DNA of 48,530 nt, from contig JBGUGE010000038.1 in the NCBI GenBank assembly GCA_045111335.1, positions 1 to 48,530 on the forward strand. The letters are read 5' to 3'. Shown one piece after another: positions 3,672 through 25,440 of the stretch. A model generated the notes under the pieces. That model was not told where the DNA came from and made no database searches. It saw only the letters and a program-made list of their open reading frames with translations. This stretch comes from Alphaproteobacteria bacterium. GTDB taxonomy: Bacteria > Pseudomonadota > Alphaproteobacteria > RF32 > CAG-239. The stretch's first letter is position 1, and every line of letters begins with the position of its first letter. The translations under genes and the position numbers were made by a program.

Positions 3672-3704
3672 ACGTCAAAAACTGTCGTAATATACTCTTA
3701 TAAT
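3672..3704 (+). promoter_or_regulatory. WYL (DriD/PafBC-type) operator-promoter, copy 1
   Basis: ACGTCAAAAACTGTCGT-N10-TATAAT, near-identical to 12271-12303. Confidence 0.7.
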
Positions 3705-6921: not shown

Positions 6922-6949
6922 GAATAAAACGTAACAAAGAGAGCAGAAT

Positions 6950-8143: not shown

Positions 8144-8226
8144 CAAAATGAAAAATATGTATTATAAGGACGATGAGGATGAAGAAAGATATTACTGAAA
8201 ATAAAACATAATAGAGGGAACAGAAT

Positions 8227-8575: not shown

Positions 8576-8746
8576 GCCATATATGCGTTTTATGACCAAT
8601 TTGAAGCAAAATGTTAAACAATGTAAGGAATCCGCACAAAGTTTAACATTTTTTTGTTTGGGGTATTTTTTCTAATAACCCTGAAGAATGTGAAGAACTG
8701 TTGCCCGAGCAATATCGAAAAAAGAAAAGATATTGGTAAAAATTCA

Positions 8747-8782
8747 GAGCCGATTGACAATCGGCTCCTTTTATTATAGTAT
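8747..8782 (+). promoter_or_regulatory. Terminator hairpin containing a sigma70 promoter
   Basis: GAGCCGATTGACAATCGGCTC hairpin plus T tract; TTGACA(8754)-17 bp-TAGTAT(8777). Confidence 0.65.
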
Positions 8783-8816
8783 GAATAAAATTTAAAATAA
8801 AACCATAGGTAGCAAA

Positions 8817-9329
8817 ATGAAAAAGATAGAAAAATCAAAACTCATCAAAACCATTCTGTTGTTAATTTCAACAATTCCTTTCCCTTTGTTTTTCGCTATT
8901 CTTTTATATGTTGTTCCGGCTTTATATGTAAGTTTTATCGTTCCTTATTTAATCTGGAAAATTTGGTTTGGTAAAGATAGTAAGAAAATAAAAAAAATTA
9001 CTCTGACTTGGAAATTGCCGATTATAATTTTCTTGGCATGGGCAATGTTTGAAATAGAAATGTTGTTGATTTTTCTTGTTCCGTTCACGTTATCATTTAT
9101 TTGGAAACTAATTCTCTTCTTTATTTCACTATTACTGTTCCGGTGCATAACCTATGCAATGATGATTTTTATATTGCAATACGATATTTTGGTGCCATAT
9201 CGAAAATTAATATATGCTTTTATATTGGCTTATTGTATTGCCGTTGCAGATTTCTGGTATTTATCTCTAAATGCACCGGATACAGATGACTACAGCATTT
9301 CGTTTTATGAATATATGTCGTCAGAATAG
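8817..9329 (+). CDS. Multi-pass membrane protein, orphan immunity candidate
   Basis: 170 aa, about five hydrophobic segments, AT-rich. Confidence 0.7.
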   Translation: MKKIEKSKLIKTILLLISTIPFPLFFAILLYVVPALYVSFIVPYLIWKIWFGKDSKKIKKITLTWKLPIIIFLAWAMFEIEMLLIFLVPFTLSFIWKLILFFISLLLFRCITYAMMIFILQYDILVPYRKLIYAFILAYCIAVADFWYLSLNAPDTDDYSISFYEYMSSE

Positions 9330-9368
9330 GAAGATTTATTGGCAGTAAATATCCGGAGGAAGATTGTG

Positions 9369-9581
9369 ATGAGCTTGTTCAAAGATATATTAAAAAGAAT
9401 TGGTAAATACATTGGGTATGTGCTACTTTTTATTTGTTTTTCAACAATTACAGGTGTTGTTGCCGGAATTACTTGGTATGCATTGACTGAACATAGTTAT
9501 AAAGAGTGCGATAACCAGTTTATATATGGTTGTATGTCTGCAGGACTTAGTGAAGAAGCCTGCAAAAGTAGAGTGTATTGA
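9369..9581 (+). CDS. Small membrane protein with Cys-rich tail, orphan immunity candidate
   Basis: RBS GGAGGA before ATG 9369; one TM segment, then C-x6-C-x9-C. Confidence 0.6.
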   Translation: MSLFKDILKRIGKYIGYVLLFICFSTITGVVAGITWYALTEHSYKECDNQFIYGCMSAGLSEEACKSRVY

Positions 9582-9667
9582 TAATAAACAAAAGGCGAGG
9601 AAAATTTCCTTGCCTTTTATTTTTGTTGATATACTATCATAATGGTTACAACCTTTAGGATAACAAC

Positions 9668-10012
9668 ATGTTTCAAGACAAGGTAAAGCAAGCGATATCA
9701 GATACTTTCAAACTCTTGTGGTCGTTCAAATGGTATGTTGGATTGTATCTGCTGTATTATATTATAAGTATTATATCATTATTTGATATACCGACAGCAG
9801 ATGATAAAATATTCCATGCAGAAGCAACTTCGCAAATCTGGTCATATACTAATCAAGAGGTTTATATCGGCAGTCTAAGGTTAGAAATTATAATACTGAG
9901 TTTACTTTTTCTGTTGGGGACGAGTAATATGCGTAATCACCCGAAGATAGCAAAATTTATTTTTATTCTACCATGGATTTATGCAACAATTCGTTTGATA
10001 AAACTTTTTTAA
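9668..10012 (+). CDS. Membrane protein, orphan immunity candidate
   Basis: RBS AGGA; three hydrophobic segments; preceded by the same hairpin as 5756. Confidence 0.7.
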   Translation: MFQDKVKQAISDTFKLLWSFKWYVGLYLLYYIISIISLFDIPTADDKIFHAEATSQIWSYTNQEVYIGSLRLEIIILSLLFLLGTSNMRNHPKIAKFIFILPWIYATIRLIKLF

Positions 10013-10110
10013 AGGTATCCGGTTTCGCCTTTGATATATGATTGCCGGGTATATGGCACGTTTCGGAAGATTTTTGCAAGTGTAGCGAAATTATATCGCA
10101 AGTCCAAAGA
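10008..10110 (+). repeat. Right-end repeat family (copies at 10008, about 11560 and 36429)
   Basis: TTTAAAGGTATCCGGTTTCGCCTTTG (26 bp) identical at 10008 and 36429; GTATATGGCACGTTT; TAGCGAAATTATATCG present in all three copies. Confidence 0.85.
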
Positions 10111-10302
10111 GAAAAGTTTGATGAAGCATTAAAAGCTGGTAATAAATTAACGGCTAACGGATTTGCTCATTGGTTTTTAAAGAATAGAGAAAATGATATG
10201 AAAATACCTTATGAGGAAGGTAATAAACTGCATAAACTTATACGTTTGGCAGAGGCAAATAATCGAGAGTTTAAAACACCCATAGAATGCAAAGGCGGAT
10301 AG
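10042..10302 (+). pseudogene. 5'-truncated paralogue of 4014-4475 fused to the repeat
   Basis: QREKFDEALKAGNKLTANGFAHWFL...NNREFK aligns to the C-terminal half of 4014-4475. Confidence 0.75.
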
Positions 10303-10387
10303 TTGCAAACTATACGGGATTGTCAAAGTTTTTCTTATAGATAAAGTAAAACTGTAAATTTCTAATTTTAGCTGAAAGGAAGAAACA

Positions 10388-11068
10388 ATGACGGAATTTA
10401 TAAGAGAATTGATGTTTGGTAAACATCCGGTGCACCGAACAAATCCCAAACCCGGACAAAGCGAATGGTACTATTTGGACCCGCGCGGAACAGATAGATT
10501 TGCTGATATGAAGGAAATCGATGTACCGAATGAGAATTAGCCAAATCCATATGCTAACGAAATACAAAACTATCTGTATGAAAATGACGAGTATAACTAT
10601 AAACAACTTTATGGTAATACTCCACCACCGGTACAAACGCAGAATAATAGTATTCCGCAATTACGCATGCCTGCGGGTTCTGAACAACAAATAACCATGC
10701 CGAGTAATAATTTGCAAAAATACAACAACAATTTTGCAAATTTTGTAAGCAATACTTATGACAACGTAAATAATGCTTATAATAGTGTTAAGCAAGATTA
10801 TTTCGGACAACGAAATTATCAGAATAGGTATAAACAAGGTTGTACGCCTTCTAATATCGCATATAATACAATATCTAATTATCAAATTTCTCCTAACCAG
10901 AAATTGGTAGAAAATGGTAATATAGTTTCAAATTATATTATGAAAAAGGTTTTATCTGCAATACCTGTAGTGGGTACGTATGTAAATGGAATTGTAGCCG
11001 GAGATAAAGTAGCTAATGGATTAACTAATATCTACAATGCTATGGATGAGGCTGATTGTTTTAAATAA
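10388..11068 (+). pseudogene. Second full-length-type effector interrupted by one in-frame TAG (10538-10540)
   Basis: RBS AAGGA and ATG 10388 in frame with track ORF 10667-11068: MTEFIRELMFG...VPNEN*PNPYANE...L2...IPVVGTYVNGIVAG. Confidence 0.75.
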
Positions 11069-11124
11069 AACTTGATTCTAACAAACAATCTGCATATAGT
11101 AAATCTAAATAAAGGGGATAACAA

Positions 11125-11523
11125 ATGAATGAAAAAACAAAAGAAATATGCATATTAGGTGGTTTATATTTTGTGATTAGCTATATCATTGATTTGGTGG
11201 GCGGTTTTGCAAGCAATCTATCAACGATTTTTTTTATTTTGTTTGTTATCCTCTTTTTTATGATTTTATTTGGCAAGAAAGTTGCCTTTCTGCAAAAATT
11301 TACGGATAAGTTTCCCAAGTTCTCGGTGTATTTATATTATATTGGATTTATAGGATATATTTTACTTGTTTTTAATTTATTGGTTTTAGGTCCGACGGAA
11401 TTTATTTCTTTGAGTGAAGTTATGCAAAAATATATTGCATGGGGTGTTGCCACTATAAATATCATCGGAGTCTTGTTGGCGTTAATTTTAGCAACTCGTA
11501 ATGTATTTTTTAAGAAAAAGTGA
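11125..11523 (+). CDS. Four-TM membrane protein, candidate cognate immunity
   Basis: RBS AAGGGG; own promoter TTGATT(11072)-17-TATAGT(11095). Confidence 0.75.
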   Translation: MNEKTKEICILGGLYFVISYIIDLVGGFASNLSTIFFILFVILFFMILFGKKVAFLQKFTDKFPKFSVYLYYIGFIGYILLVFNLLVLGPTEFISLSEVMQKYIAWGVATINIIGVLLALILATRNVFFKKK

Positions 11524-11833
11524 AAATAGCACGAAAGGATCTGAAATGCCTAAGTTCGGAAGTAAATTGATTAATGTAGCGAAATTATATCGTAATTTCA
11601 AAGCATTAGAAAGAGAGTTATTTCCCGCTATCATTTCAGGCGTTTTAGTACAAACAAGGCTGATTTCAAAATTGATGAAATATTTTAAGGCGACGAGATT
11701 GTCCTTCGCAAACACTTTTATGTTTGCTCACGACCTACGGCGCTCATCGGCTAATCGCCGACCGGCATACTTAAAGTCTGCCTTTCGCTTGTAGCCGAAC
11801 ACGCTTCTCCGTGTTCGAACCGGCGCCCTAAAA

Positions 11834-12134: not shown

Positions 12135-12270
12135 ATGGTCGTGTATATGGCACGTTTTTAAGGAAAGCCCCGGTTCCGAGCTCCCTTGGTCATAAAATGC
12201 GAACTCCCAGTCCGCTTGGTGTTTTTGAAAGAAAGCAACTATAAGTACTTGTATAGTCAACATGCCTAAC

Positions 12271-12303
12271 ACGTCAAAAACTGTCGCAATTTGCTCTTAT
12301 AAT
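12271..12303 (+). promoter_or_regulatory. WYL operator-promoter, copy 2 (points at the DnaB-like gene)
   Basis: ACGTCAAAAACTGTCGC-N10-TATAAT. Confidence 0.7.
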
Positions 12304-12343
12304 ATAACCATTTTGAACCAATTGTTTATTATGGGAGCAGAAA

Positions 12344-13306
12344 ATGACTGAGAATACCGTTGAGAATAATTTATCGGAAATTTTAAACGACTATCTGCAT
12401 GAACTTGATTTTAGGGTTCAACATCCCGATGCATTGATGGGAATTGCGACCGGATTTGACAACCTTGATAAGAGATTGGACGGTTTGTGCAATGGTGAGG
12501 TTATTTTAATCGGTGGTCGCCCGGCGATGGGGAAAACGGCTTTGGCCGCCAATTTGACTTATAATATTGCCGCCGGTTTTTATCTCAAACATCAGCAAAA
12601 TCCGTTAGATGATAAATGCGTTGTATATATCGGCTTGGAGCTTTCGCCGAAATTGTTTGCCAACAGGCTTCTTTCTTTACAGACAGCAATACCGACGTAT
12701 AAATTACGTTGTGGTGAGGATTTGGGAGAAAATTTTGATAAGATTTGCAAAGCCGAACGCACTTTTAGGGAATTACCGATTTATTATCTGGGCGATATAT
12801 TTGAGGTCGATGACATTGAAAAAGAGTTACAAAAGGTAGAAAAACAGGTCGGTTGCGTGATTATCGACTATCTGCAACTCTTGGGAGAGGAATATCAGAC
12901 AAAAGAAGATTACAGCTTAATCGTGTTACAACTTAAATCATTGGCTGTTAAACTCGGCATACCGATTGTGGTGCTTTCGCAGTTGAAACGTGAGTTGGAA
13001 AGCCGAGCCGATAAACACCCGCTTATGAGTGATATTCGCGGGATTATGCGCAATCAAAACGCGGCTGATAATGTCATATTTTTGTATCGCGAAAGCTTTT
13101 ATATTCAATTTGCGGAGCCAAGAACACGCAAGAAAGAATCCGATGATCAATATCAAAAACGTGTGCGGCAGTGGCAAAAACGTTGCGACGAAACAGAAAA
13201 CATTTGTGAAATTATCATCGCCCGCAATTCCGGTGGCTTTTGCGGCATAATTAAACTGCATTTTGATTGGGCCACCGGACTGTTTTGGGAGGAGAAAAGA
13301 GAATGA
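12344..13306 (+). CDS. DnaB-like helicase C-terminal domain protein (no N-terminal domain, degenerate motifs)
   Basis: TGFDNLD, Walker A GRPAMGKT, IIDYLQL, LSQLKR; SDLRESGSIEQDAD reads SDIRGIMRNQNAAD and KxRxG reads RNSGG. Confidence 0.85.
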   Translation: MTENTVENNLSEILNDYLHELDFRVQHPDALMGIATGFDNLDKRLDGLCNGEVILIGGRPAMGKTALAANLTYNIAAGFYLKHQQNPLDDKCVVYIGLELSPKLFANRLLSLQTAIPTYKLRCGEDLGENFDKICKAERTFRELPIYYLGDIFEVDDIEKELQKVEKQVGCVIIDYLQLLGEEYQTKEDYSLIVLQLKSLAVKLGIPIVVLSQLKRELESRADKHPLMSDIRGIMRNQNAADNVIFLYRESFYIQFAEPRTRKKESDDQYQKRVRQWQKRCDETENICEIIIARNSGGFCGIIKLHFDWATGLFWEEKRE

Positions 13307-13375
13307 CATTCTCTGCTCCGAAAGTAGGAATATGCTTCAATCCTTCATAACAAAGGATTGGATTTTATCCAATCC

Positions 13376-15286
13376 TCAATTATCATTATTACTTATAAGA
13401 CGAACTACATTTTCTCTCAGAATTTCTAACATTTCTCTGCCATGTTTTTTGTAGGCATTTTCTTTCCAATCTGCATTAGTAATTGTTTCATTAGACATTA
13501 TTCTTAATTTAAGGCTACCATTTTTTATTGTATCACCAAAACTCCCTTTTTTAGATTCAGGAGATAAGTTGGAAAACTTAGAATTTGTCCTACGTTGAAC
13601 TAAACACAAGTTTCCAAAATAATCCAATCCATCCTTGGGTGACCAACTTTCGAATGTTCCTTCTGACGGATGTTGCGGATACCAGTGCTCTACTGAATTC
13701 CTATACTCGAATGTAAAATTCTTATAATTTTCTTCCGCTTTTTTATACTTATTCCAAAGAAGATAATCCAGATAATTAAAGACAATATGAGGAGTATCAA
13801 CACCAGCATTAAAAGCTTCGGCCTTCAAATAATCTTCATCGCTTAAGTTACTATTATTATTGAAATAATCTTGATAAACAGCTTTTGCTATGTATTTTTC
13901 CAAAAAAGTCCCTACATCTACAATATTATTATTGTTATTGTACAACCATATCAATAATTCAGTAATCCAATGCATAATTTTGGGCGAGGTATAAGAAACA
14001 CGTAGACAAGCTTGAAGCATTAAGATTTGCTTATGTCTCTCGTCATATGTTTTTTCTCTTTCCCATAGATTTGCAAAACATGTGTTTTTGTAATACGCTT
14101 TCTTCTTGCTTTGTTGCCCACTGGAACATAAGCATTTTAAGCTCCAAACACCTTCTTCATCCGTACCGGAAGTTTCTCTTTTTATAATGTATTTATCAAA
14201 TAAATACCTGCAAGTCAGTAAGTAATTAATGAATTTCAGTGAAAAAACACGTTTTTGACCATTATAATATTTTTTTATTACAGCTTCAAATGTCTCAAAA
14301 AGCTTTTTATCGTCTAATAGACGCTTTGTATCACCATGAGATTTTATTTCTTGATTAAGAAAAACTTTTAAAACATGCATTAAAAAGTATGGCGCCTCAA
14401 TAATACTCCTAAATCTTTGACTACCATCATCATCTTCGCCGTAATTGTTTGCTTCTTGCAATTTTTGTATACTATCAAAATTTATAATATCTAATATTTT
14501 CTTTTTTTCTTTACCTGATTCCGCTCTTATAAATTTATTATACTCGTTTTTCGGCTTTTCAGTCCATGTTTCCCCAAAAATTGAAGCTCTGTACTCAGGT
14601 GTAAAATGCATTTGAATGTACCCATTCATATTAACACATGCATCCCAAATTAAAGCAAAAATATCTTTTTCATTATCATTTAAGCAATCCATTAAATGGG
14701 CTTTTAAAATATCTTGTTGTTCCAATTGTTCGCCACGCGTATTCATTATCTCAAAATAACGATTCAAATCAGTATGAGGAGGAACCTTTATTCTATATAT
14801 TTTTACTTTAGACAACTTTTCTTTAAATTTTTCCTTATCGTGTTTTTTAAAATATTCACTAATAATATCCCATCCTTTTATTATTCCCTCGTCTTTTTCT
14901 TTTAATAAATTATCTTGTGCCCCGATTGTATCCAACGTATTATCTGAGGTGGGGCGATATGCAAAGGTCAAATATTCACAATTTTTCCAATCAAGCAAAT
15001 ATTTTAGTACTAAAAATAAAGTTGTTAAACGTTGTTGACCGTCTATAACTTCATATTCATCATCTAATTTATAAACAATCAACGAGCCCAAACAATATGA
15101 TGAATCTGTATCGTCGGCGATTCCATCAATATCTTCCATAAGCTGATTAATTTCTTTGTCTTCCCAAGCAAATGCTCTTTGGTATAAAGGGATAATATAT
15201 CTGACATTTTCTGAAAATAGATTGTTTATATTATTAGGAGTATAAACTTTTAATTCTTCAATAAATGCTTCTCCGGTTTGCTTCAT
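13376..15286 (-). CDS. GmrSD-like DUF262 + DUF1524 (HNH) nuclease
   Basis: IPLYQRAFAW, VIDGQQRLTT, FEIMNTRG; C-terminal SVEHWYPQ...GNLCLV...NSKFSN. Confidence 0.9.
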   Translation of the reverse strand: MKQTGEAFIEELKVYTPNNINNLFSENVRYIIPLYQRAFAWEDKEINQLMEDIDGIADDTDSSYCLGSLIVYKLDDEYEVIDGQQRLTTLFLVLKYLLDWKNCEYLTFAYRPTSDNTLDTIGAQDNLLKEKDEGIIKGWDIISEYFKKHDKEKFKEKLSKVKIYRIKVPPHTDLNRYFEIMNTRGEQLEQQDILKAHLMDCLNDNEKDIFALIWDACVNMNGYIQMHFTPEYRASIFGETWTEKPKNEYNKFIRAESGKEKKKILDIINFDSIQKLQEANNYGEDDDGSQRFRSIIEAPYFLMHVLKVFLNQEIKSHGDTKRLLDDKKLFETFEAVIKKYYNGQKRVFSLKFINYLLTCRYLFDKYIIKRETSGTDEEGVWSLKCLCSSGQQSKKKAYYKNTCFANLWEREKTYDERHKQILMLQACLRVSYTSPKIMHWITELLIWLYNNNNNIVDVGTFLEKYIAKAVYQDYFNNNSNLSDEDYLKAEAFNAGVDTPHIVFNYLDYLLWNKYKKAEENYKNFTFEYRNSVEHWYPQHPSEGTFESWSPKDGLDYFGNLCLVQRRTNSKFSNLSPESKKGSFGDTIKNGSLKLRIMSNETITNADWKENAYKKHGREMLEILRENVVRLISNNDN

Positions 15287-16564
15287 TTAATTTATCTCCT
15301 TTATTTGTGTATATAATGTCTCCCACTTTTCTCGCTGAGCTTTACCTGAATCCCGTTGGATATTAACTACTAAATTTGCAATTTCTTTATGATTTAAGGC
15401 ATTCCTTATTATCGAAAAAATAGGAATATTATTGGTATACCTGCTTTCTGAACTATGGCACGTAGTATAAGCATTGATGCTTGAAAACGGTAATACTTCT
15501 AAATCTACACGTAGCATAAAAGCCCAAGAAAATAGATTTTTTATCGCTTGCTTATCCCAATTATGAAATTTATCATAATAACAGAGTACAGCACATTCAA
15601 ATAAGGTTTTAGCATGCATAAAACCAGTAGAATTTTTATATGGATCAATTACTTTTGATTTATCAACTCCTATCAATTGATAAGCCTCATATTTTACGTA
15701 CTCTAAAAGTGGTACATAATAATCTACCATTTCAAAAAAGTGTTTCCCAGCAATGAAAGGCTCGGTTATTTGGAATATATTCATTGATTTTGCAACTCTT
15801 TTTGCATAAGTATACGAGCTATTTATGGAAACACCTTTATAATAATCAATTTCTTTTGCCGTAAAAGCAGAAGCTTTCTCTTTTCTTGACCATTTTAATA
15901 TGGGAAATAAATAATTTTCAAAAAGATTACGTATATCAGCAGGTTTAATTGCTTCCCATTTTCTTACAGCATTACGCATCTCAAAAGGTTCCTGATTTAT
16001 TTCTCTTAAGTGATAGGCTTTTAATAAATCATGCGGATTAAGCAACTTTCCGCGAGTGTTTTGAGAATCAAACAACTGAAATGCTTCCGTTTCTTTATCA
16101 ACAACTAAAACAACAAATTCAAAAATATTTGTAAAAGCGTTAAGGAGTAAATCCTTCTTATCTTCATGGGTAGAAACCCAACTACGAATATAGTGATAAT
16201 TTTGATAGATGTTTGATTTACTGATATCAGATTCACATTTTTCTTCTAACAAAGGATATGATTGGTTATTATCCAGACAATACAACAATAAAGATAAAGA
16301 AATACATCTCTGTTGTCCATCTACTATATCGTATCTCCCTCTGTTATTGTGCAAAATAACTGAACCTATCCTATATTTAAAATCTTTATATTGAAAACTA
16401 TCCACCAAAGCTTGTTCAATATCTTCCAATAGCGTTGATACATTTTTTATTGTCCATTTGTAAGGACGTTGATAATTTGGTATGTGCAAAGATTTTTGCA
16501 ACAAATCAAAAACACTCAGAATCTGAGCATTTTCTTGGATTTGTTTCTTAATCTCCTCGCTCAT
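15287..16564 (-). CDS. DUF262 (GmrS-like) protein without an HNH domain
   Basis: IPNYQRPYKW, IVDGQQRC, FDSQNTRG; its stop abuts the next ATG (TAAATG). Confidence 0.88.
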   Translation of the reverse strand: MSEEIKKQIQENAQILSVFDLLQKSLHIPNYQRPYKWTIKNVSTLLEDIEQALVDSFQYKDFKYRIGSVILHNNRGRYDIVDGQQRCISLSLLLYCLDNNQSYPLLEEKCESDISKSNIYQNYHYIRSWVSTHEDKKDLLLNAFTNIFEFVVLVVDKETEAFQLFDSQNTRGKLLNPHDLLKAYHLREINQEPFEMRNAVRKWEAIKPADIRNLFENYLFPILKWSRKEKASAFTAKEIDYYKGVSINSSYTYAKRVAKSMNIFQITEPFIAGKHFFEMVDYYVPLLEYVKYEAYQLIGVDKSKVIDPYKNSTGFMHAKTLFECAVLCYYDKFHNWDKQAIKNLFSWAFMLRVDLEVLPFSSINAYTTCHSSESRYTNNIPIFSIIRNALNHKEIANLVVNIQRDSGKAQREKWETLYTQIKEIN

Positions 16565-16686
16565 TCCTAATTCTCCTTCTTGTTTGTACCACTATTAGTC
16601 ATTTCCTGATTCTTAAAGTTTATCCGATATTAACTTAAAGTCAACCGTGGATTTATATAAAAAAATTACACCATTTATTAAATTTT

Positions 16687-16719
16687 GTTATATATCGTAT
16701 ATACGACAATATTTGACGG
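16687..16719 (-). promoter_or_regulatory. WYL operator-promoter, copy 3 (points at the DUF262 pair; lies in the WYL gene leader)
   Basis: Minus strand CCGTCAAATATTGTCGT-N10-TATAAC. Confidence 0.7.
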
Positions 16720-16728
16720 AGATGGGAT

Positions 16729-17676
16729 ATGGCAAATTACGAAAAAATGTATGATTTGTTTGATTTGGCGATGGCAATGCAGGAATCCAGCGAGGGATTG
16801 TCGCTTGAGGATATTCAGCGTAAATACAACGTTTCACGCCGTACTGCCGAGCGTATGCGCGATGCGCTGTTGAACTATTTTCCGCAAATGGAGGAAGTGG
16901 CAACCGGCGAGCGCACCAAACGGTGGCGTATTACTCAGCGCAGTTTGAACAGTTTTATCTCGTTTTCCGCCGAAGAACTGGCCGTATTTAAAACCGCGAT
17001 TGATAGCTTAAAACAGGGAAATTTGCAAGAAAAAGCCGACACCCTGTCTAGGGTTGAAATAAAATTGCGTAATCTGTTAAAGCCGGAGCAAAAAAATAAA
17101 ATCGAGGTTGATGCCGACGAATTGATGAAAGCCGAGGGGCTGGTTTTGCGTCCGGGACCACGGATTGAGCTGGATAAAAATATTCTGAACACCCTGCGTC
17201 AGGCCATTCTTTCTTGTCATCACATCAAAATGGCATATGAAGCCAAAAATTCCGGCAAAAGTCATGTTTACAGGCTCGTTCCGTACGGTTTCTTATACGG
17301 TCAGCGCGATCATTATTTAGTGGCCAAGCACAGCGATGGCTATGATAACGGCAAAGCGCACAATTTCTCGTTGCAATGTATTAAAAGCGTAGAGATATTG
17401 CCAGATATTTTTGACAGTTCCGAATTTGATTTGCAGGCGTATGCTTTGGAATCCTTCGGAGCTTTTCACGAGGAGCCTTTTGATGTGGAGTGGTTGTTCA
17501 GTGCCAACGTTGCCAATGAAGCCGAAAACTTTATTTTCCATCCGAAGCAAAAATTAACCCGCAATCCGGATGGCACGCTGACGGTTAAATTCAGAGCCGG
17601 TGGCCGTCGTGAAATGGATTGGTTTTTATACACCTGGGGCGATGACGTCAAAGTCATCAAACCGAAACCGGAGTAA
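16729..17676 (+). CDS. wHTH-WYL-WCX transcriptional regulator (DriD/PafBC-like)
   Basis: N-terminal HTH (GLSLEDIQRKYNVSRRTAERMRDAL), WYL core (LVPYGFLYG.RDHYLVA), WCX (FHPKQ...EMDWFLYTWGDDVKVIKP). Confidence 0.92.
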   Translation: MANYEKMYDLFDLAMAMQESSEGLSLEDIQRKYNVSRRTAERMRDALLNYFPQMEEVATGERTKRWRITQRSLNSFISFSAEELAVFKTAIDSLKQGNLQEKADTLSRVEIKLRNLLKPEQKNKIEVDADELMKAEGLVLRPGPRIELDKNILNTLRQAILSCHHIKMAYEAKNSGKSHVYRLVPYGFLYGQRDHYLVAKHSDGYDNGKAHNFSLQCIKSVEILPDIFDSSEFDLQAYALESFGAFHEEPFDVEWLFSANVANEAENFIFHPKQKLTRNPDGTLTVKFRAGGRREMDWFLYTWGDDVKVIKPKPE

Positions 17677-17683
17677 AAATTTT

Positions 17684-18262
17684 TTAATTTAAAGGATTGT
17701 CCTGCAAAAATTTTTCAAGCATAGCAACATCTCGTTGGTAATCCTTGCGCTCTTTTTTGTTTTGAGCAATGTATTTAGCCTTAAATTCTAACCGTTGAAT
17801 TTCCAGTGGTATATATTTCAGCAGAACTTCCAGATGTTCAATATCTCCGACATTTTTAGCCCCTTTGCATACTAGGTAACACGCCTCATCAATATCTGCA
17901 AACAACATTGCTGTGCCTAAAATCGTGAGCTTCATTCCATCGACGGCGTCAATATCCATGTGACATTCATCTATCAAATAATCTATTAGCTTATGACCAC
18001 TACTATAAGCAAATGCCGTATGTAGCAAGGTAGAATCGGTTTGCGGATCAATAAAATCCAAAGAAGCTCCAAGCTCTAAAATACACTTAAAACACCCTAA
18101 ACGTCCGTTTCTTGCCGCATAGAATATAGCGTTTCTGCCTTTTTCATCTTTTTCGTTAATCAGGGATTTTATATCATCGGTTTCATCTAATATTTTTTTG
18201 AAAGCATCTACATCATTATCCAAGATTGCCCGATGCAGCGGTAAAAGTTTTTCTTCAGTCAT
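17684..18262 (-). CDS. Ankyrin-repeat protein
   Basis: PLHRAI, GRNAIFYAARNG, TLLHTA, DIDAVD repeats; start 18262 (or 18277) overlaps the upstream stop. Confidence 0.8.
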   Translation of the reverse strand: MTEEKLLPLHRAILDNDVDAFKKILDETDDIKSLINEKDEKGRNAIFYAARNGRLGCFKCILELGASLDFIDPQTDSTLLHTAFAYSSGHKLIDYLIDECHMDIDAVDGMKLTILGTAMLFADIDEACYLVCKGAKNVGDIEHLEVLLKYIPLEIQRLEFKAKYIAQNKKERKDYQRDVAMLEKFLQDNPLN

Positions 18263-18791
18263 TGTAAGTCCTTTCATTTATTGCGCAGGAGTTTTTCAGC
18301 CTTTTATAGACTTCGCATACATACAAAACATCCAAAAGTGCGCCATTGTAAGGCGAATGTTTGATTTTAATTTTGAGTCTCTCGCTCAAGGCACAAAGAT
18401 TATTTTTCTGCCCCGGAAATACTTTTCTCGCCATTTCCAAGGTATCGGTCACTTTGTTAGGCAGTTCAAAACCAACCTCATTATTGATAAAGTTCATGTC
18501 AAATTGCACATGATGCCCGATTATCTCTTTACCCTCAATAAAACGCAGAAATTCGTCTTTGTATGCGGCAAAAGTCGGAAAATTCTTCAGGAACTTATAA
18601 TCTAAGCCATGTATCGCCGTAACATCTCTTGATATCCGGCGCTCCGGATTGATATAGGCATGAAATATTACTCCGGTTTGCACATCGTTTTCATCAATTT
18701 CAATAGCGGCAATTTCCACAAGTTTATGACCATCTTTCGGAGAAAAACCGGTAACTTCCGTATTAATAATTACTTTTTTGTTATTGCTCAT
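18255..18791 (-). CDS. DnaQ/epsilon-like DEDDh exonuclease with substituted catalytic residues
   Basis: INTEVTG (for LDTETTG), EIAAIE, YINPER, IHGL, HHVQFDMNFI, DTLEMAR, NGALLD (for HGALLD). Confidence 0.85.
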   Translation of the reverse strand: MSNNKKVIINTEVTGFSPKDGHKLVEIAAIEIDENDVQTGVIFHAYINPERRISRDVTAIHGLDYKFLKNFPTFAAYKDEFLRFIEGKEIIGHHVQFDMNFINNEVGFELPNKVTDTLEMARKVFPGQKNNLCALSERLKIKIKHSPYNGALLDVLYVCEVYKRLKNSCAINERTYND

Positions 18792-19488
18792 TGTCCTTCT
18801 CCTCATAAAACCACAATTTCTGACAATCTTTCAGGTGTTCGGTATATTTCAAAGATGATGTGTTGGCGCGAACGTGGAAAGTTTTATCTCCCGGTTGTTT
18901 TATAACTTCAATATCTATCGGCTCTTTGTATCCGTTTACGGCTGACAGCTTGAAAGTCATATCCGCAGCGAGCAGAATGTCGGAAGAGTCCTTTTGCCAA
19001 CAAATAACCGGAACGTTAAGTATTTGCGCCGCATCTTTGAAAATCAAGGTCGCTTTATCCTCATCAACACCATATCTTAACTTGTATATCGGAGCGATAA
19101 TGGCAAGCAGTTTTTTATCCTTTAGGTGTTGAAATTTTTTTAAGTTTAGCCATGCGGAATAACTTCTCAGCAACAAATCAACGCCTTGTGTCGGGTCATC
19201 TTGTATAGGTAGTCCATGTCGTGTTAAAAGTTTGTTTTTCGAGATTCTGTCGTTAATCAGCGCATAATCAAAATCGGCAGGATTACTGTCAAAAATAGTG
19301 GAAGTAAGCGACGGAAAATCAAGCGTTCCCATCAGCACCACAAATCCGTCGTTATTGTCGGCAATGCTTTGTGTTAAACTGATTATAAATTGCTCGACTT
19401 GTATGCATTCTCCTTGTATCGTCGCCAAATCGCCGGCATGAAGACCGCCTAAATCCGTATCAATAAAAGAAAATCCGGTTTTTATCAT
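18781..19488 (-). CDS. Highly degenerate DnaB-C-like protein
   Basis: IKTGFSFIDTDLGGLHAGDLATIQG resembles the start of the DnaB ATPase domain; FKDAAQILNVPVI and AADM...IEVIKQ echo later motifs; no Walker A lysine. Confidence 0.55.
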   Translation of the reverse strand: MIKTGFSFIDTDLGGLHAGDLATIQGECIQVEQFIISLTQSIADNNDGFVVLMGTLDFPSLTSTIFDSNPADFDYALINDRISKNKLLTRHGLPIQDDPTQGVDLLLRSYSAWLNLKKFQHLKDKKLLAIIAPIYKLRYGVDEDKATLIFKDAAQILNVPVICWQKDSSDILLAADMTFKLSAVNGYKEPIDIEVIKQPGDKTFHVRANTSSLKYTEHLKDCQKLWFYEEKDNEQ

Positions 19489-19964
19489 TTTATTTTTTCC
19501 TCATCGATTTCCATAACTTTAATGCCCTCGGAATTAAATAAATCCACTTTTCCGGCCGTGTCTGACTTCATATAAACAAAGTTTTTATCAAATTTAATAA
19601 TGGTTTTTCCCGCTCCCCATGCCGGACAGCGCACATAATTTCCATTGTCCGAAACAATCGCTATCGGACCTTGCAAAGTGTATGGAAAAGTTGTGATTTC
19701 TCCCGAAACAAACATATCTTTGAGAGTGTTAATTGTTTGTTTTCTCGTTCGTTTGGCAGAAATTGTTTTGAGTTGCCGGAGCAAACTTTCGGCTTGACGT
19801 AATTGTTCGTTAATCCGACCAAGAGTTTCTTTATCTTGTTCGCTGATATGTAGCGCCGAAACATCATCTTTAATTTGTTGCACCATCGGCATAAAATCAT
19901 GGTAAAAGCCTTTAACTAATGAAGTCATCGCCTCCATTTTTACCTTGTATGTATCGTCTTGCAT
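19485..19964 (-). CDS. Hypothetical protein
   Basis: 159 aa, coiled-coil N-terminus; ATGA overlap with the next gene. Confidence 0.7.
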   Translation of the reverse strand: MQDDTYKVKMEAMTSLVKGFYHDFMPMVQQIKDDVSALHISEQDKETLGRINEQLRQAESLLRQLKTISAKRTRKQTINTLKDMFVSGEITTFPYTLQGPIAIVSDNGNYVRCPAWGAGKTIIKFDKNFVYMKSDTAGKVDLFNSEGIKVMEIDEEKIK

Positions 19965-19974
19965 AGATAACTTC

Positions 19975-20178
19975 TTAATATGGTTCGCTTTTTATAAAAT
20001 GTCCTTGTTCATCGAGAACGTGCCTATATTCTTCGTTGGCAATAATCACTATTTTTTCGCTGTCCCAATGTTCAAGCCGATAAGGTGCAGTCATCATGCC
20101 CGTGAGCATCAGCCCCATCCTACTTCCGTCTTTGACAATAGTTAAGCAGTCATCTTTAAGCGTCACATCTTCAATCAT
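19975..20178 (-). CDS. Small hypothetical protein, first gene of the putative WYL-controlled operon
   Basis: RBS AGGAG before ATG 20178. Confidence 0.65.
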   Translation of the reverse strand: MIEDVTLKDDCLTIVKDGSRMGLMLTGMMTAPYRLEHWDSEKIVIIANEEYRHVLDEQGHFIKSEPY

Positions 20179-20214
20179 TTTCGTCTCCTGTTGTTTGTTG
20201 AACTTTACGAAAAC

Positions 20215-20247
20215 AATTAAACATATAAACACGACAGATTATGACGT
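20215..20247 (-). promoter_or_regulatory. WYL operator-promoter, copy 4
   Basis: Minus strand ACGTCATAATCTGTCGT-N9/10-TTTAAT/TTAATT. Confidence 0.62.
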
Positions 20248-20282: not shown

Positions 20283-20732
20283 TTATAACTTTTTCACATA
20301 CACCCGAGTTGGTTTGCCCTCACGAGTGGTCATGGTCTGCCAAAAGGTAAAGCCGTATTTCTCGTAGAGGCCGACCTCGTCGGTGGAAATATAAACTTTT
20401 TCGGTGCCGGCGGATTTTAACGCTTCGCAAATGTGGGTGATTAACTTGCCGGCGTTGCGGTGGCCGCGGGAGGCCGGAAACGTATATACAAACCCAATCC
20501 ACGGCGACAGTTCCGGTGCGTCAATCTCGTCTTGCGGCGCCAAAGTGGCAAACGAAACCAGCTTATCACCGTCGGTCAGCATATAAACTTCGGTAGCATC
20601 GCCGCACATCTGCTTTAATTTGTCGCTCTCCAGCCAGTCGTGCAACAATTCCGCCGCCGACCAATCGCCTTTGCCGATTTCTTCCCTCCAATGTGCCTGA
20701 TTTTCCGTTTGATAATACTTTATTACCTGCAT
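20283..20732 (-). CDS. GNAT acetyltransferase
   Basis: PWIGFVYTFPASRGHRNAGKL...GLYEKYGF. Confidence 0.9.
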   Translation of the reverse strand: MQVIKYYQTENQAHWREEIGKGDWSAAELLHDWLESDKLKQMCGDATEVYMLTDGDKLVSFATLAPQDEIDAPELSPWIGFVYTFPASRGHRNAGKLITHICEALKSAGTEKVYISTDEVGLYEKYGFTFWQTMTTREGKPTRVYVKKL

Positions 20733-20957
20733 TTTGTCTCATACTTCATAGTTGCGATATTTGCAAACTATAAACCTTTAAATATAACTTGCCAAGTACA
20801 TAGTTCATAGTTTTGAAATTTTAAAACTATGAAGTTATAGGATATAAAAAATATTCGGCGACCGGACTTAAATAATGTAGATATTCGGGAATTTTTCTTG
20901 ACTTTTCGGGAATTATTCGGTAACATTTCGGTAAAGATTATAACAAAGGATATTAAA

Positions 20958-22016
20958 ATGCCGAATATGACAGATATTACAATTACGCCGGATATGCTAA
21001 AGAAAATAGCAGAAATCGACGCTTTTAACGGGGCGTTTAATAGTGGCGGTATAAAGATTAGGCCTGATAAATTAAAAGCCATGAAGCGCATTGCGACGAT
21101 TGAATCTATCGGCTCATCAAATCGTATTGAGGGCAATAAGCTAAATGATACTGAGGTTGAAACTGTCTTTAATCATATCAACAAAAAGTCATTTCAAACG
21201 CGCGATGAGCAAGAAGTCGCCGGCTATGCCGATTTGCTTTCAACGATTTTTGAGAATTATAAAGAAATCAATCTGTCCGAGAATTATATTCGGCAGTTGC
21301 ATAAAATCTTGCTTTCGTATTCAGACAAAGACGAGCGTCATCGCGGCGAATATAAAAAAGATTCAAATCGCGTGGTAGCCTTTGATGCAAATGGTAATGA
21401 AATCGGCACAATTTTTGAAACAGCAACACCTTTTGATACGCCGCACTTAATGCAGGAATTAGTGGACTGGACGAACATTAATTTTAAGGACGGCTATTTT
21501 CACCCGATTATCACAATCGGCGTGTTTGTCGTGCATTTTTTATCAATACACCCTTTTACAGACGGCAACGGCAGGCTTTCGCGTGCTTTAACGACAATGC
21601 TTATGCTACAAAACGGCTATAATTATATGCCTTACGCTTCAATGGAATCTATCATTGAGGCTAGCAAAGACGCATATTACAGAGCTCTGCGCGCTACGCA
21701 AAAGACAATCTGGAGCGATAAGGTAAATTATGAGCCGTGGCTGACGTTCTTTATTACCTCGCTTGCCAAGCAAAAGCGCCATTTAGAAGATAAAATTGCT
21801 TTAGCTTTGAAATCGGACACAACAAGAATAAGCAAAGCCGAGCAAGCCGTTTTAGACCTCTTTGAAGAAAAAACAAATTGGTCTGTTTCAGAAATGGCAG
21901 AAGCTTTAGACAAAAACAGCGAGACCGTCAAAAAGACCGTGCAAAATCTCGTCAAGAAAGACCTGCTCGAGAAACAAGGCTCGACCAAAGGAACATACTA
22001 TATTTTGAAGAGGTAA
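20958..22016 (+). CDS. Fic family protein with C-terminal winged HTH
   Basis: HPFTDGNGRLSR Fic motif; SNRIEGN inhibitory-type motif; C-terminal LVKKDLLEKQGSTKGTYY. Confidence 0.92.
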   Translation: MPNMTDITITPDMLKKIAEIDAFNGAFNSGGIKIRPDKLKAMKRIATIESIGSSNRIEGNKLNDTEVETVFNHINKKSFQTRDEQEVAGYADLLSTIFENYKEINLSENYIRQLHKILLSYSDKDERHRGEYKKDSNRVVAFDANGNEIGTIFETATPFDTPHLMQELVDWTNINFKDGYFHPIITIGVFVVHFLSIHPFTDGNGRLSRALTTMLMLQNGYNYMPYASMESIIEASKDAYYRALRATQKTIWSDKVNYEPWLTFFITSLAKQKRHLEDKIALALKSDTTRISKAEQAVLDLFEEKTNWSVSEMAEALDKNSETVKKTVQNLVKKDLLEKQGSTKGTYYILKR

Positions 22017-22017
22017 A

Positions 22018-23175
22018 ATGCGTCAGCACGTTATAGCTTTGGTTGATTGTGACTGCTTTTTCGTTTCATGCGAACGGAAGGATAATCCCGATTTGCAAGG
22101 CAAGCCTGTGTGCGTGATGACCGGCGGCGGTTCAAAAGGCATTATCGTCTCCCGCTCAAAGGAAGCTAAGGCGCTGGGGATTAAAATGGGCCAGCCGTAT
22201 TTTCAGGTTAAGCCGAACTTCCCGACTGCAATTTGTATTCCGGCTCGCCACCACCGCTATACCGAGATTTCGAAAGAAGTTATGGACACGATTAAGACTT
22301 TTAGTCCGGATGTCGAAGTAACCTCGGTTGATGAGGCATTTGTTGATTTGACCAGCCTCAACAAGGTTTATCATTCCACCTATACCGACATCATCAAAAA
22401 TATCCGGCAAACGGTGTGGGACAAGGTCGGTATTCCCGTTTCCATCGGCTTGGGAACTTCCAAAACGCTGGCAAAACTGGCAAGCGATAAGGCAAAAATG
22501 AGCGGCGGGATATTTGTGATCCCGCCGGATAAAATCTTGGATATTGTGGGCGAAATGCCGATTGAGGACGTTAGCGGTATCGGGCGCAAAAACAGCGAGC
22601 ACATGAAGTTCAGCGGGATTTTTACGATTAAGGACTTTGTGGAGAAAGAAAACGGCTGGATTAGAAAAGCTTTCGGAATTAACGGCTTAAATCTCAAAAG
22701 CGAGCTGACCGGTGTTGCGACATCTTTGGTTAACAACGAACCCACCGCCCCGCAGAGCATACAGGTAACGCGGAGTTTTGAGGACTTCACGCAAAGTTTG
22801 GAATATTTGGAACACGAATTAAATCGGCATGTTCATGAGGCATGTCAGAAGCTCAGGCGGTGGAACGGCTTTTGCCAAGGGGTGGAAGTTATGCTCCGCA
22901 CCAAAGATTTCAAATATCTCGCTGTTGAGGCAAAATTGCCGAACCCGACCAATGGCGACCAAGAAGTGCGCATGACCGCCATAAACCTCTTGAAACAACT
23001 CTACCGCCCGAATTTAATTTACCGCTCAACCGGCGTAACACTCAAAAATCTGACCTATGGCGAAGTTCAACAGTCGCTGTTTGAGGAAGTAAAGCCCCAC
23101 GACGACAAACTCTCGCATTTAGTGGACGAGCTTGAAGCCAAATTCGGCAAAGGGATTGTTAAAACCGGGGTGTGA
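22018..23175 (+). CDS. Y-family DNA polymerase (DinB/UmuC-like)
   Basis: LVDCDCFFVSCE, SKEAKALGIKMG, SVDEAFVD, KTLAKLAS; clamp-binding-like QQSLF. Confidence 0.92.
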   Translation: MRQHVIALVDCDCFFVSCERKDNPDLQGKPVCVMTGGGSKGIIVSRSKEAKALGIKMGQPYFQVKPNFPTAICIPARHHRYTEISKEVMDTIKTFSPDVEVTSVDEAFVDLTSLNKVYHSTYTDIIKNIRQTVWDKVGIPVSIGLGTSKTLAKLASDKAKMSGGIFVIPPDKILDIVGEMPIEDVSGIGRKNSEHMKFSGIFTIKDFVEKENGWIRKAFGINGLNLKSELTGVATSLVNNEPTAPQSIQVTRSFEDFTQSLEYLEHELNRHVHEACQKLRRWNGFCQGVEVMLRTKDFKYLAVEAKLPNPTNGDQEVRMTAINLLKQLYRPNLIYRSTGVTLKNLTYGEVQQSLFEEVKPHDDKLSHLVDELEAKFGKGIVKTGV

Positions 23176-23204
23176 AAAATAAATCCCCGTAACCAGCATA
23201 TTTC

Positions 23205-23262
23205 ACTGGACTTCTTTGTTTTTCCAAGCATTCATTGGGTTGTAACGAAAGGAACAGCCATG
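23205..23262 (+). promoter_or_regulatory. Element-specific promoter/leader shared with the DUF2924 gene
   Basis: ACTGGACTTCT-N9-CAAGCATTCATTG...GAAAGGAA...GCCATG, also at 35524-35578 on the minus strand. Confidence 0.7.
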
Positions 23263-23565
23263 AAAACAGTTAAAATTTATATGGTCCGGAAGCCCTCAGA
23301 CATCGACGAAGTAACAGAGTTATGCCAGCGTTATGTCGCACAGGCCGAAGAAGTGGTGGTAGCGGAAACGGTTGAATTACCGGCCGTTTGGTATGATGCG
23401 GTTTGTCTATTCCCGCTAGATGATTACATTTTCCTATCCGGCAAAGGTGGCTATGACGACGAAAACCACCGCCAAGTAGTTGAATTAAAATGCGCCGGTC
23501 GGCCGACACTTTATGTGGATCCGTCCGGGTCGAGTTACTGCCGATATATGGGAGTTGAGCCATGA
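23260..23565 (+). CDS. Small mobile-element protein (DUF6329-like)
   Basis: C-terminal LYVDPSGSSYCRYMG resembles the family motif (from memory); good RBS. Confidence 0.6.
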   Translation: MKTVKIYMVRKPSDIDEVTELCQRYVAQAEEVVVAETVELPAVWYDAVCLFPLDDYIFLSGKGGYDDENHRQVVELKCAGRPTLYVDPSGSSYCRYMGVEP

Positions 23566-23795
23566 AAATGAAGCGATACGAAGAAATTGAGCCGAGCAAC
23601 CGGACAACTTTCCGGATGTTGTATTATAACGCCGGTCGTACTCTCACTCAAATTGAAACCCTGTTAAAGTTGGTCTACGGGAATCCACTACCGATAAAGT
23701 CGCAGGACCGATTGTTCCGCATAAGACACAAGCTGGAACAAATGGTCGCCCGGTACAAACAATGCGAGAGTGAATTAAGGGAAAAGAAACTTTAA
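23562..23795 (+). CDS. Hypothetical protein
   Basis: ATGA overlap with the previous gene. Confidence 0.55.
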   Translation: MKMKRYEEIEPSNRTTFRMLYYNAGRTLTQIETLLKLVYGNPLPIKSQDRLFRIRHKLEQMVARYKQCESELREKKL

Positions 23796-23886
23796 TAAAT
23801 ACAAAAAAAATTAATCAGAAATCTTGCGATTAAAGTCATTAAAACCTAAATACTAAGTATGTTTAATATAACTTAAAGGGGCATAA

Positions 23887-25440
23887 ATGGCTAAAATCTA
23901 TCTAGATGCACTTATTCAACGAGACGACTTTGAAGCAATTTCTGAGGGCATGACCGAACAACTGAATAAATCAACAGTTAATATTTCTGATTTAACTACA
24001 GATGCTTTCTTCTATCACATCATCAGGAAGCCAGACTTTCAAAGAGAAACAAATGAATGGGATGCTCAAACGGTTGCTGATTTTGTTGAAAGTTTTATAA
24101 AGGGTGATTTAATTCCTGCTATAATTTTTTGGAAATCACCGTCAGGTAATTGTTTTGTTATTGACGGAGCGCATCGTTTAAGTGCTCTTATTGCTTGGAT
24201 TAATGATGATTATGGTGATGGTATATTGTCTAAAAGTTTCTATGAAAATATTCCAGAAACACAACTTAGAGAAGCAGAAAGAGCGCGCAAAATTATAAAT
24301 CAAACGATTGGTAGTTATTCTGATTTAAGAAAAATTATAGCTAATCCAGCGGCATACCCTAGTGAAACTCAAAAAATTATATATGCAAAAAGAATAGGTA
24401 CAGCCGGTTTTCAAGTTCAGTGGGTAACAGGTGATGCAAAAACAGCTGAAGATTCTTTCTTCAAAATAAATCAAAAAGCAGTACCTATTGATAAAACAGA
24501 AATTAAATTATTAAGATCTAGGAAAAAGCCAAACTGTATTGCCGCAAGAGCAATTATAAGAGGCGGCAAAGGACACAAATATTGGGAAAATTTTTCGAAA
24601 GAAAATCAAGATTCAATTTCACAACTTGCTGAAAGCATTAATTCTTTACTTTTTCATCCTTTATTAAAAAGTCCAATAAAAACTTTAGATTTGCCTATTG
24701 CGGGTAAGAGTTTATCAGGACAAACTCTTCCTTTAGTGTTGGATATAGTAAATATGACTAATAATATAACATCATCTAATGACTTATATAATATAGATGA
24801 CGATATAGATGGGACATCTACTATTAAAATTTTAAGAGAAACGCAAAAAATTATACAATTAATTAATAGTAATGCACCGTCATCTTTAGGACTTCACCCT
24901 GCTGTTTATTTTTATTCTGCAGATGGCAGACATAAAGTTACATCATTCTATGCTATTGTAGCGTTAGTTTTGTATCTAAAAGAACATAATAAATTAAATT
25001 GGTTTACGGAAAAAAGAGCCGAATTTGAACAATTTTTGATTGATTATGGATATTTAACACAGCAAATGGGGCGCAAATATAGAGAATCTTCAAAAGCTTA
25101 CAATCCGATGAGAGATTTTTATTTGTTTGTGCTGGAAAAATTTCACGAGTATACATCTTTTAACGATGTTGTTAATAAAGTTATTGAAAAATATGATTTT
25201 TTAACATTACAAACTCCGAATCAAGAGTCAACCGGTGGTAAATTTTCTGAAAATACAAAATCTGCAGCATTTTTAAGAACTGCAATGCAAGGAGCTGTAA
25301 AATGTGGTATTTGTGGCGGATATATCCACACTAATTCTGTCAGCTTTGATCATATTCAAAGAAAACAAGATGGTGGGGCTAAAAATATTGACAACTGCCA
25401 GATCACTCATCCTTATTGCAATACTGGTTATAAAAATTAG
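23887..25440 (+). CDS. DUF262 + C-terminal HNH endonuclease
   Basis: KPDFQRETNEW, FVIDGAHRLSAL, FFKINQ; CGICGG...DHIQRKQDGG...NCQITHPYCN. Confidence 0.88.
   Translation: MAKIYLDALIQRDDFEAISEGMTEQLNKSTVNISDLTTDAFFYHIIRKPDFQRETNEWDAQTVADFVESFIKGDLIPAIIFWKSPSGNCFVIDGAHRLSALIAWINDDYGDGILSKSFYENIPETQLREAERARKIINQTIGSYSDLRKIIANPAAYPSETQKIIYAKRIGTAGFQVQWVTGDAKTAEDSFFKINQKAVPIDKTEIKLLRSRKKPNCIAARAIIRGGKGHKYWENFSKENQDSISQLAESINSLLFHPLLKSPIKTLDLPIAGKSLSGQTLPLVLDIVNMTNNITSSNDLYNIDDDIDGTSTIKILRETQKIIQLINSNAPSSLGLHPAVYFYSADGRHKVTSFYAIVALVLYLKEHNKLNWFTEKRAEFEQFLIDYGYLTQQMGRKYRESSKAYNPMRDFYLFVLEKFHEYTSFNDVVNKVIEKYDFLTLQTPNQESTGGKFSENTKSAAFLRTAMQGAVKCGICGGYIHTNSVSFDHIQRKQDGGAKNIDNCQITHPYCNTGYKN

Follow-up and report, generated by a model that had tools for sequence, protein, structure and literature searches.

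A 48,530-nucleotide stretch of DNA, here called the window, forms contig C38 of a 1.63-Mb, 96-contig alphaproteobacterial genome (92% complete, 43.6% G+C) and carries a WYL-domain regulator gene surrounded by the genes it may control. By sequence, the product of this gene (16729-17676, plus strand) is an orthologue of DriD, the SOS-independent DNA-damage activator of Caulobacter crescentus (CCNA_01151). Taken together with the analogy to characterised WYL activators, the sequence evidence makes it very probable that a dimer of this DriD orthologue binds the four boxes in the window, is activated by single-stranded DNA (ssDNA), recruits RNA polymerase (RNAP) to promoters devoid of a -35 element and turns on three targets. 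Four CGTC-N7-GTCG sites would be the operators (DriD boxes) of a homodimeric activator in which a winged helix-turn-helix (wHTH) is followed by a three-helix bundle and then by the WYL and WCX domains. By analogy with DriD, DdaA and PafBC, ssDNA arising from DNA damage or phage attack would bind the WYL domain, and the ssDNA-bound dimer would then bring RNAP to promoters without a -35. The predicted targets are the gene for an ATPase that consists of the DnaB C-terminal domain only (DnaB_C), a divergent pair of GmrSD (DUF262) nuclease genes, and a five-gene operon encoding a DEDDh exonuclease and an ankyrin-repeat protein. That the regulator binds DNA, senses ssDNA and acts as an activator is predicted from its orthology with DriD.

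The 315-aa regulator falls in the size range of DriD-type homodimeric activators (about 315-335 aa), matches the Pfam WYL and WCX families and divides into wHTH, three-helix-bundle, WYL and WCX regions. It is the product of the single WYL gene found in the 92%-complete genome, and this gene indeed lies amid its candidate targets, as an initial annotation of the window had described for an HTH-WYL-WCX gene. A search of the Protein Data Bank (PDB) at E<=0.001 returns five chain sequences only, all of them DriD; the two full-length chains come from 9pfq and 8tp8, the structures of DriD-RNAP and DriD-ssDNA-DNA, and no BrxR, CapW or PafBC chain is matched at that threshold. Residues 4-313 of the regulator align with residues 7-311 of DriD (E 1.9e-53) in an essentially gap-free manner, and the residue mapping is sound because an offset of four recovers every DriD residue number named in the published papers. 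The recognition helix, RRTAERMRDA, is identical in the two proteins, including Arg36, Arg37, Thr38, Arg41 and Arg43. In DriD, Arg37 and Arg41 read G2 and the G paired with C4, and Arg36, Thr38 and Arg43 contact phosphates. The three-helix bundle between the HTH and the WYL domain also aligns to DriD without gaps; the DriD structure paper presents this bundle as common to the activators DriD and PafBC and absent from WYL repressors. The ssDNA pocket is conserved only in part: a manual count on the alignment finds Tyr168, Tyr192 and Lys202 identical to DriD and four other pocket residues changed.

The pattern CGTCANNNNNTGTCG (CGTCA-N5-TGTCG) has four matches in the window; 0.01 would be expected, and a count of four is not reached in any of 100 shuffles. 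Box 1 lies on the plus strand at 3673-3687 (promoter unit 3673..3704) and box 2, also on the plus strand, at 12272-12286 (promoter unit 12272..12303), ahead of the DnaB_C gene. Box 3, on the minus strand at 16718-16704 (promoter unit 16687..16718), is directed at the GmrSD pair, and box 4, on the same strand at 20246-20232 (promoter unit 20215..20246), precedes the five-gene operon. Each box has A or T at five to seven of its seven central bases. Written as CGTC-N7-GTCG, all four are exact fits to the DriD operator, which the DriD literature gives as CGXC(X)7GXCG with an AT-rich centre (idealised ATACGAC(X)7GTCGTAT, with G2, C4, G12 and C14 conserved); the Caulobacter didA site is quoted there as starting with ATACGTC.

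Genome-wide, CGTCA-N5-TGTCG has nine matches, compared with two for the reversed pattern. The relaxed pattern CGNC-N7-GNCG gives 1059 matches in the genome, too loose for use, and was therefore replaced by a strict box, CG[AT]C-N7-G[AT]CG with an AT-rich centre, on which the genome and locus counts are based, and by a weight matrix derived from 51 of the relatives' sites. Strict boxes number 16 in the whole genome (0.098 per 10 kb), eight within open reading frames (ORFs) of at least 120 aa and eight elsewhere. At five of the latter eight, a -10-like hexamer occupies offset 11; these are the four of the window and a fifth at C68:3739, upstream of a 148-aa ORF without a family match. The regulon had at first been called self-contained, which holds for four of the five promoter-type boxes in this 92%-complete genome and fails for the one on C68. 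Coincidence in AT-rich intergenic DNA is a vanishingly unlikely source of the four window copies: although the eight strict genome boxes inside long ORFs look chance-like, the window boxes far exceed both the expectation and the shuffles, are all intergenic, and share a -10-like hexamer at one and the same offset. The phasing and helix-type counts obtained from relatives (below) contradict coincidence as well.

The remaining genome matches yielded no further promoter-type box. Boxes on C55, C76, C10, C70, C84 and C86 were set aside as lying inside ORFs, the box on C56 as lying within a 16S rRNA gene, and an extra weight-matrix match, C74:11908, as lying inside a 776-aa phage-tail-like ORF; the box at C27:11494 is intergenic, with neither a good -10 nor a gene behind it. 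On C68 (box and ORF, 3739-4238), the ORF behind the box has no Pfam, PADLOC or PHROG match and directly follows a PDDEXK_4 nuclease gene; in relatives, box-driven AAA+ genes are followed by PDDEXK_4 genes.

The distance between box and -10-like hexamer is exactly 11 nt at all four window sites. The hexamers are TATAAT at 3699-3704 (site 1, plus strand), TATAAT at 12298-12303 (site 2, plus strand), TATAAC at 16692-16687 (site 3, minus strand) and TTAATT at 20220-20215 (site 4, minus strand). The initial annotation had reported four such sites with a -10 about 11 bp further on; the sites and the spacing are borne out, and the coordinates it gave need correction by one base at each site. The boxes span about -38 to -24 of each promoter. 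With spacers of 16-18, the best matches to TTGACA are 3/6, 3/6, 2/6 and 2/6 at sites 1-4, amounting to no -35, and none of the four promoters has a TG-extended -10. The -35 was checked directly in this way because the box promoters are not among the best 60 of 97 rows of a standard sigma-70 scan. With the box over the -35 position and its GTCG 11 nt from the -10, RNAP would depend on the bound regulator for access to these promoters.

The geometry resembles that of Caulobacter DriD promoters. In Caulobacter, the DriD box overlaps the place of the -35 and keeps one set distance to the -10; no -35 is present in these promoters, and sigma region 4 lies on the opposite DNA face (2026 cryo-EM paper). 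An 'optimised -35' oligonucleotide in the same study carries TTGACA at box positions 4-9 (2026 cryo-EM paper), and in the window a -35 placed 17 bp from each -10 would likewise occupy box positions 4-9; from this design, the box-to-(-10) spacing appears to equal that of the Caulobacter promoters. The register is also that of the published PafBC consensus, tGTCgg(N10)tA(N3)T: TGTCG, 11 nt, TAnnnT, with a full fit at sites 1 and 2 and one -10 position off at each of sites 3 and 4.

The position of box 3 adds to this resemblance. Its distal end is 10 nt upstream of the regulator ATG, and it is oriented toward the GmrSD pair. The DriD literature describes a DriD box upstream of the driD homologue in 68 of 69 alphaproteobacterial cases, at a mean distance of 17 nt from the start codon, and the Caulobacter driD box sits in a bidirectional promoter in which it activates the divergent operon, not driD (2026 cryo-EM paper). 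Both the placement and the orientation of box 3 match the Caulobacter driD box. Full-length alignment, recognition helix, motif, 11-nt spacing, lack of a -35 and divergent box all agree with the LexA-independent activator of DriD/PafBC type that had initially been proposed.

Box and recognition helix also occur together in relatives. The comparative set comprises 80 loci around homologues of the WYL protein, with at most 10 kb fetched on each side, and the homologues come almost exclusively from metagenome-assembled genomes (MAGs) of uncultured rumen and gut Alphaproteobacteria. When counted by helix type, with nine loci excluded for truncated or aberrant regulators, the 48 loci with an RRTAERMR-type helix hold 66 boxes in 789 kb, 33 of them having at least one, and no box occurs in the 309 kb of the 23 loci whose regulator is a KRTAIRMK-type paralogue. 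This paralogue is 40-47% identical (47% or less) and occurs in L059, L061-L083 and L086; both types coexist in some MAGs. Allowing at most one mismatch, a box is found within 200 nt upstream of 30 of the 71 homologues that have at least 150 nt of upstream sequence each; at 82% identity or more the count is 17 of 18, and among paralogue-type homologues it is 0 of 21. A common variant has GGCG as the gene-proximal half-site, as in Caulobacter didA. Of 14 loci with a DnaB_C homologue, nine have a box upstream of it; at 55% identity or more, all six do.

The phasing is also retained. The 72 strict AT-centred boxes of the 80 loci give 144 oriented instances, and TAnnnT falls exactly 11 nt past the box in 35 of these, compared with 2-14 at any other offset from 4 to 21. 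Many of the relatives' other boxes carry TTWRWT at offset 11. Box 4 is kept in L011 and L012, and other loci have related TTWRWT hexamers at this offset. Across species, the regulator's reading helix covaries with the box and with the 11-nt phasing of box to -10, which makes these loci a clean natural resource for working out the promoter grammar of WYL activators.

This pattern bears on another explanation, namely that the motif is a recombination or repeat element copied around the island, for example as the ends used by a serine recombinase encoded at 33390-35105. The box is kept before orthologous genes in many genomes while the flanks diverge, it tracks the recognition-helix type, and it matches the biochemically defined sites of DriD and DdaA, all of which argue against this explanation. 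The window is rich in repeats, with a 195-nt direct repeat whose copies are 31,920 bp apart as well as the large serine recombinase, and one 57-nt stretch (family D15) is present in two copies, as sites 1 and 2; sites 3 and 4, however, share just the 15-nt box with sites 1 and 2. That the motif is a recombination or repeat element is therefore highly improbable.

A regulator working in the opposite direction deserves more weight, even though it is still unlikely. As a repressor in the style of BrxR or CapW, the protein would occupy the -35/spacer region, block RNAP and leave upon binding ssDNA. Boxes that cover about -38 to -24, and with it the -35 region, would suit such a repressor as well, but an activator that contacts RNAP needs box and -10 to be strictly phased, as they are at 11 nt across genomes, and a repressor does not. 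Similarly, sites 1 and 2 have a perfect TATAAT, as a repressor reading would favour, yet all four promoters are without a -35 or a TG-extended -10. Defence-like neighbours of the GmrSD type are the usual setting of WYL repressors such as BrxR and CapW; set against this, the PDB relatives at E<=0.001 are DriD chains only, and the three-helix bundle typical of activators is present.

Other observations besides the box position and the defence-like neighbourhood weigh against activation by a DriD-type dimer. In the ssDNA pocket, Trp206 is replaced by Phe (a conservative change), Arg204 by His, Ser172 by Asn and Arg178 by Tyr. The DriD residues R121, R122, P125 and E128, which were mutated to break contact with the C-terminal domain of the RNAP alpha subunit (2026 cryo-EM paper), correspond to N, K, V and D in the regulator. 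The site 4 hexamer, TTAATT, departs from the usual A at position 2. The equality with the Caulobacter spacing derives from the design of an oligonucleotide rather than from a promoter alignment, and many of the 80 loci are closely related, so that the counts given above are not counts of independent events.

The candidate DriD regulon appears to coexist with a conventional SOS response. The genome also encodes LexA and RecA, and GAAC-N7-GAAC, which we take to be the alphaproteobacterial SOS box, stands upstream of both recA (C85) and lexA (C66). The recA and lexA upstream regions hold no DriD box, even by the loose pattern, and GAAC-N7-GAAC does not occur in the window. Given that LexA, RecA and SOS boxes are all present, a DriD-type pathway would run beside SOS and not in its place, and the arrangement is consistent with an ordinary alphaproteobacterial SOS regulon alongside a DriD one.

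Comparison with characterised WYL regulators brings out both the likeness and the divergence of the window's system. The host belongs to the same class, Alphaproteobacteria, as Caulobacter, and the two regulators share their recognition helix, the overlap of the box with the -35 position, the fixed -10 distance and the absence of a -35. The regulons differ: that of Caulobacter consists of didA, recA, recJ, dnaG, bapE and a TonB-type transporter operon, whereas here recA has an SOS box and no DriD box, and the candidate targets (DnaB_C ATPase, GmrSD pair, exonuclease-ankyrin operon) are clustered around the regulator. The residues of the ssDNA pocket and of the RNAP contact are, moreover, conserved only in part.

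DdaA of the Moraxellaceae, which include Acinetobacter, recognises CGWCA-N5-TGWCG (PMC12392091), and the window motif has the same written form; the two systems are compared here by motif. DdaA is a WYL activator with direct control of repair genes as well as restriction-modification, CRISPR-Cas and Zorya systems (PMC12392091). It has replaced LexA in its lineage and controls core repair genes (PMC12392091), in contrast to the present genome, where LexA is retained and the boxes are nearly all local. PafBC of Actinobacteria resembles the window's system in its -10 and its promoter-proximal half-site, in the lack of a -35 at its promoters and in being triggered by ssDNA. It is a heterodimer, or a fusion of two paralogues, which binds a non-palindromic half-site only together with RNAP and works by sigma adaptation, whereas the present genome has one WYL gene and boxes with two half-sites. 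BrxR and CapW are likewise wHTH-WYL-WCX proteins encoded beside defence genes, and ssDNA is given as the CapW signal. They are repressors that are shorter (288-299 aa) and, by the account of the DriD structure paper, without the helical bundle, which the regulator in the window possesses.

Much of the framework is therefore established: DriD boxes at alphaproteobacterial driD genes and a WYL activator of defence systems (DdaA, 2025) have already been published. A literature search returned no prior report on this gut/rumen lineage or on a DriD-controlled GmrSD gene. As the concept of a WYL activator of defence is already on record for DdaA, the gain lies in breadth and in the 'cargo socket' idea set out below, and no new principle is claimed. 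The DriD/DdaA class of ssDNA-sensing WYL activators would be extended to an uncultured, small-genome gut/rumen lineage of Alphaproteobacteria, with a regulon that is almost wholly local and made up of genes for nucleases and ATPases, a GmrSD-type restriction pair among them, instead of recA-type repair genes.

Among the predicted targets, the DnaB_C-only ATPase (320 aa; 12344-13306, plus strand) matches PF03796 (5.7e-52) and the C-terminal part only of phrog_19, a DnaB-like helicase; the N-terminal domain of the helicase is missing. Its leader after the site 2 promoter is ~34 nt long and contains a ribosome-binding site. Upstream of its box, a ~70-nt stretch (12160-12230) is conserved among the window, L012 and L015 and has no Rfam match; a minus-strand terminator-like hairpin lies within it at 12215-12199. 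The operon divergent from the regulator begins with a 425-aa protein combining GmrSD_N and DUF7834 domains (15287-16564, minus strand), which has a PADLOC match, and continues with a 636-aa protein combining GmrSD_N and GmrSD_C (13376-15286, minus strand), whose N-terminal domain is matched by the PADLOC models Orf5, HEC-06 and SspE.

The five genes behind box 4 are all on the minus strand. The first encodes a small protein of 67 aa (19975-20178); its ORF is listed from a GTG at 20232, and the ATG at 20178, preceded by an AGGAG ribosome-binding site, is the likelier start. The second product, of 159 aa (19485-19964), has no family match and only a weak HisKA-like lead in the ESM Atlas (score 0.91, 141 shared features); its family is the commonest behind the box in relatives, with a cluster of 29 instances. 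The third, of 235 aa (18781-19488), is also without a family match, and its homologues occupy the same operon in eight loci. The idea that this protein is a degenerate DnaB_C fold is unsupported (BLASTP against the DnaB_C protein, E 0.13). The fourth is a DEDDh (RNase_T/DnaQ-like) exonuclease of 183 aa (18255-18806) that matches the PADLOC models DEDDh and PDC-S48, and the last is an ankyrin-repeat protein of 197 aa (17684-18277), identified by a family match, which relatives carry as a fusion with the exonuclease (731 aa in L049). Across the relatives, the families commonest behind the box are the 159-aa protein, the DEDDh exonuclease, sometimes ankyrin-fused, DnaB_C, a 110-aa protein and a ~685-aa double AAA+ protein. 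Rfam and tRNA scans find nothing near the four promoters.

The initial annotation had aimed the four sites at these three sets of genes and had called the genes island defence genes. The DnaB_C gene, the DUF262 pair and the five-gene operon each retain a site, and site 1 proves to be an orphan copy with no gene. The defence label is plausible, from sequence matches in PADLOC, for the GmrSD pair only; the DnaB_C and exonuclease genes could serve repair or defence.

The gene divergent from the regulator varies by species, while the -10 and ~20 nt after it stay conserved. In the window and L012 it is the GmrSD pair, in L010 a gene for a 676-aa GmrSD_N protein followed by DUF2779, in L011 a gene for a PDDEXK_4-like protein, and in L016, L020 and L087 DUF2779; in L017 the gene upstream of the regulator encodes an AAA+ protein. 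Several of these cargo proteins, in the window and in relatives, have PADLOC matches to HEC-05/06, Orf5, SspE, IetA, PDC-S26 and Cas4, mostly with single-domain coverage. A further reading, in three parts, is as a whole tentative and more doubtful than probable. In these uncultured gut and rumen Alphaproteobacteria, core repair genes may have been left to LexA while the DriD pathway, detached from them, became an immune switch that is local and triggered by ssDNA. The conserved bidirectional driD promoter, with the first ~20 nt of the leader, may act as a 'socket' that places incoming nuclease or ATPase cargo under the control of the activator; the cargo found there, by species, is a GmrSD pair, a GmrSD_N protein, DUF2779 (Cas4-like), PDDEXK_4 or an IetA-like AAA+ protein. 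Finally, the DnaB_C ATPase and the operon encoding the 159-aa protein, the 235-aa protein, the DEDDh exonuclease and the ankyrin protein may constitute a new effector system induced by damage or phage.

Site 1 is a detached copy of the DnaB_C promoter. The stretches 3653-3709 and 12252-12308 are 79% identical over 57 nt (repeat family D15), and site 1 resembles the DnaB_C promoters of relatives over the box and onward until shortly after the -10, where the sequences begin to diverge. A hairpin and a T-run around 3726-3768 lie behind the site, with no gene directly downstream. These features fall in a ~50-nt element (3706-3757) that recurs on C14, C30, C34, C70, C86 and C91 as well as in L012 and looks like a REP-like terminator repeat. 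No ShlB or toxin cassette stands beside DnaB_C in the relatives within the fetched flanks.

The wider window is a defence-rich region. The two copies of the 195-nt direct repeat (3753-3947 and 35673-35867) are 93% identical, and more partial copies lie at 35940-36290. The large serine recombinase gene and a DUF2924 gene are located just inside the right copy (33390-35601), and a tRNA-Pro gene (36713-36789), the only one found by the tRNA scan, lies ~850 bp past it. The 195-nt repeats may delimit an island of ~32 kb containing the whole regulon. Positions 1620-11800, with a G+C of 27-35%, hold a polymorphic-toxin-like array with genes for an ShlB/FhaC transporter and a Tlde1/YkuD-like protein (4576-5676) and with three to four tandem 114-aa ORFs at a repeat period of ~425 bp (6950-8143, 9668-10012).

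To the other side of the regulon, 20283-31321 encodes a GNAT protein, a Fic-HTH protein, DinB/Pol IV, a GmrSD_N-HNH protein, a low-molecular-weight phosphatase, an AAA_21/AAA_15 ATPase, and a FokI-like nuclease with a C5 cytosine methylase; these stress and defence genes have neither a DriD box nor an SOS box upstream. In the window, L011 and L012 the GNAT-Fic-DinB flank adjoins the exonuclease end of the module; in L010 it is found at the DnaB_C end instead, and the module therefore seems to be inverted there relative to its flank.

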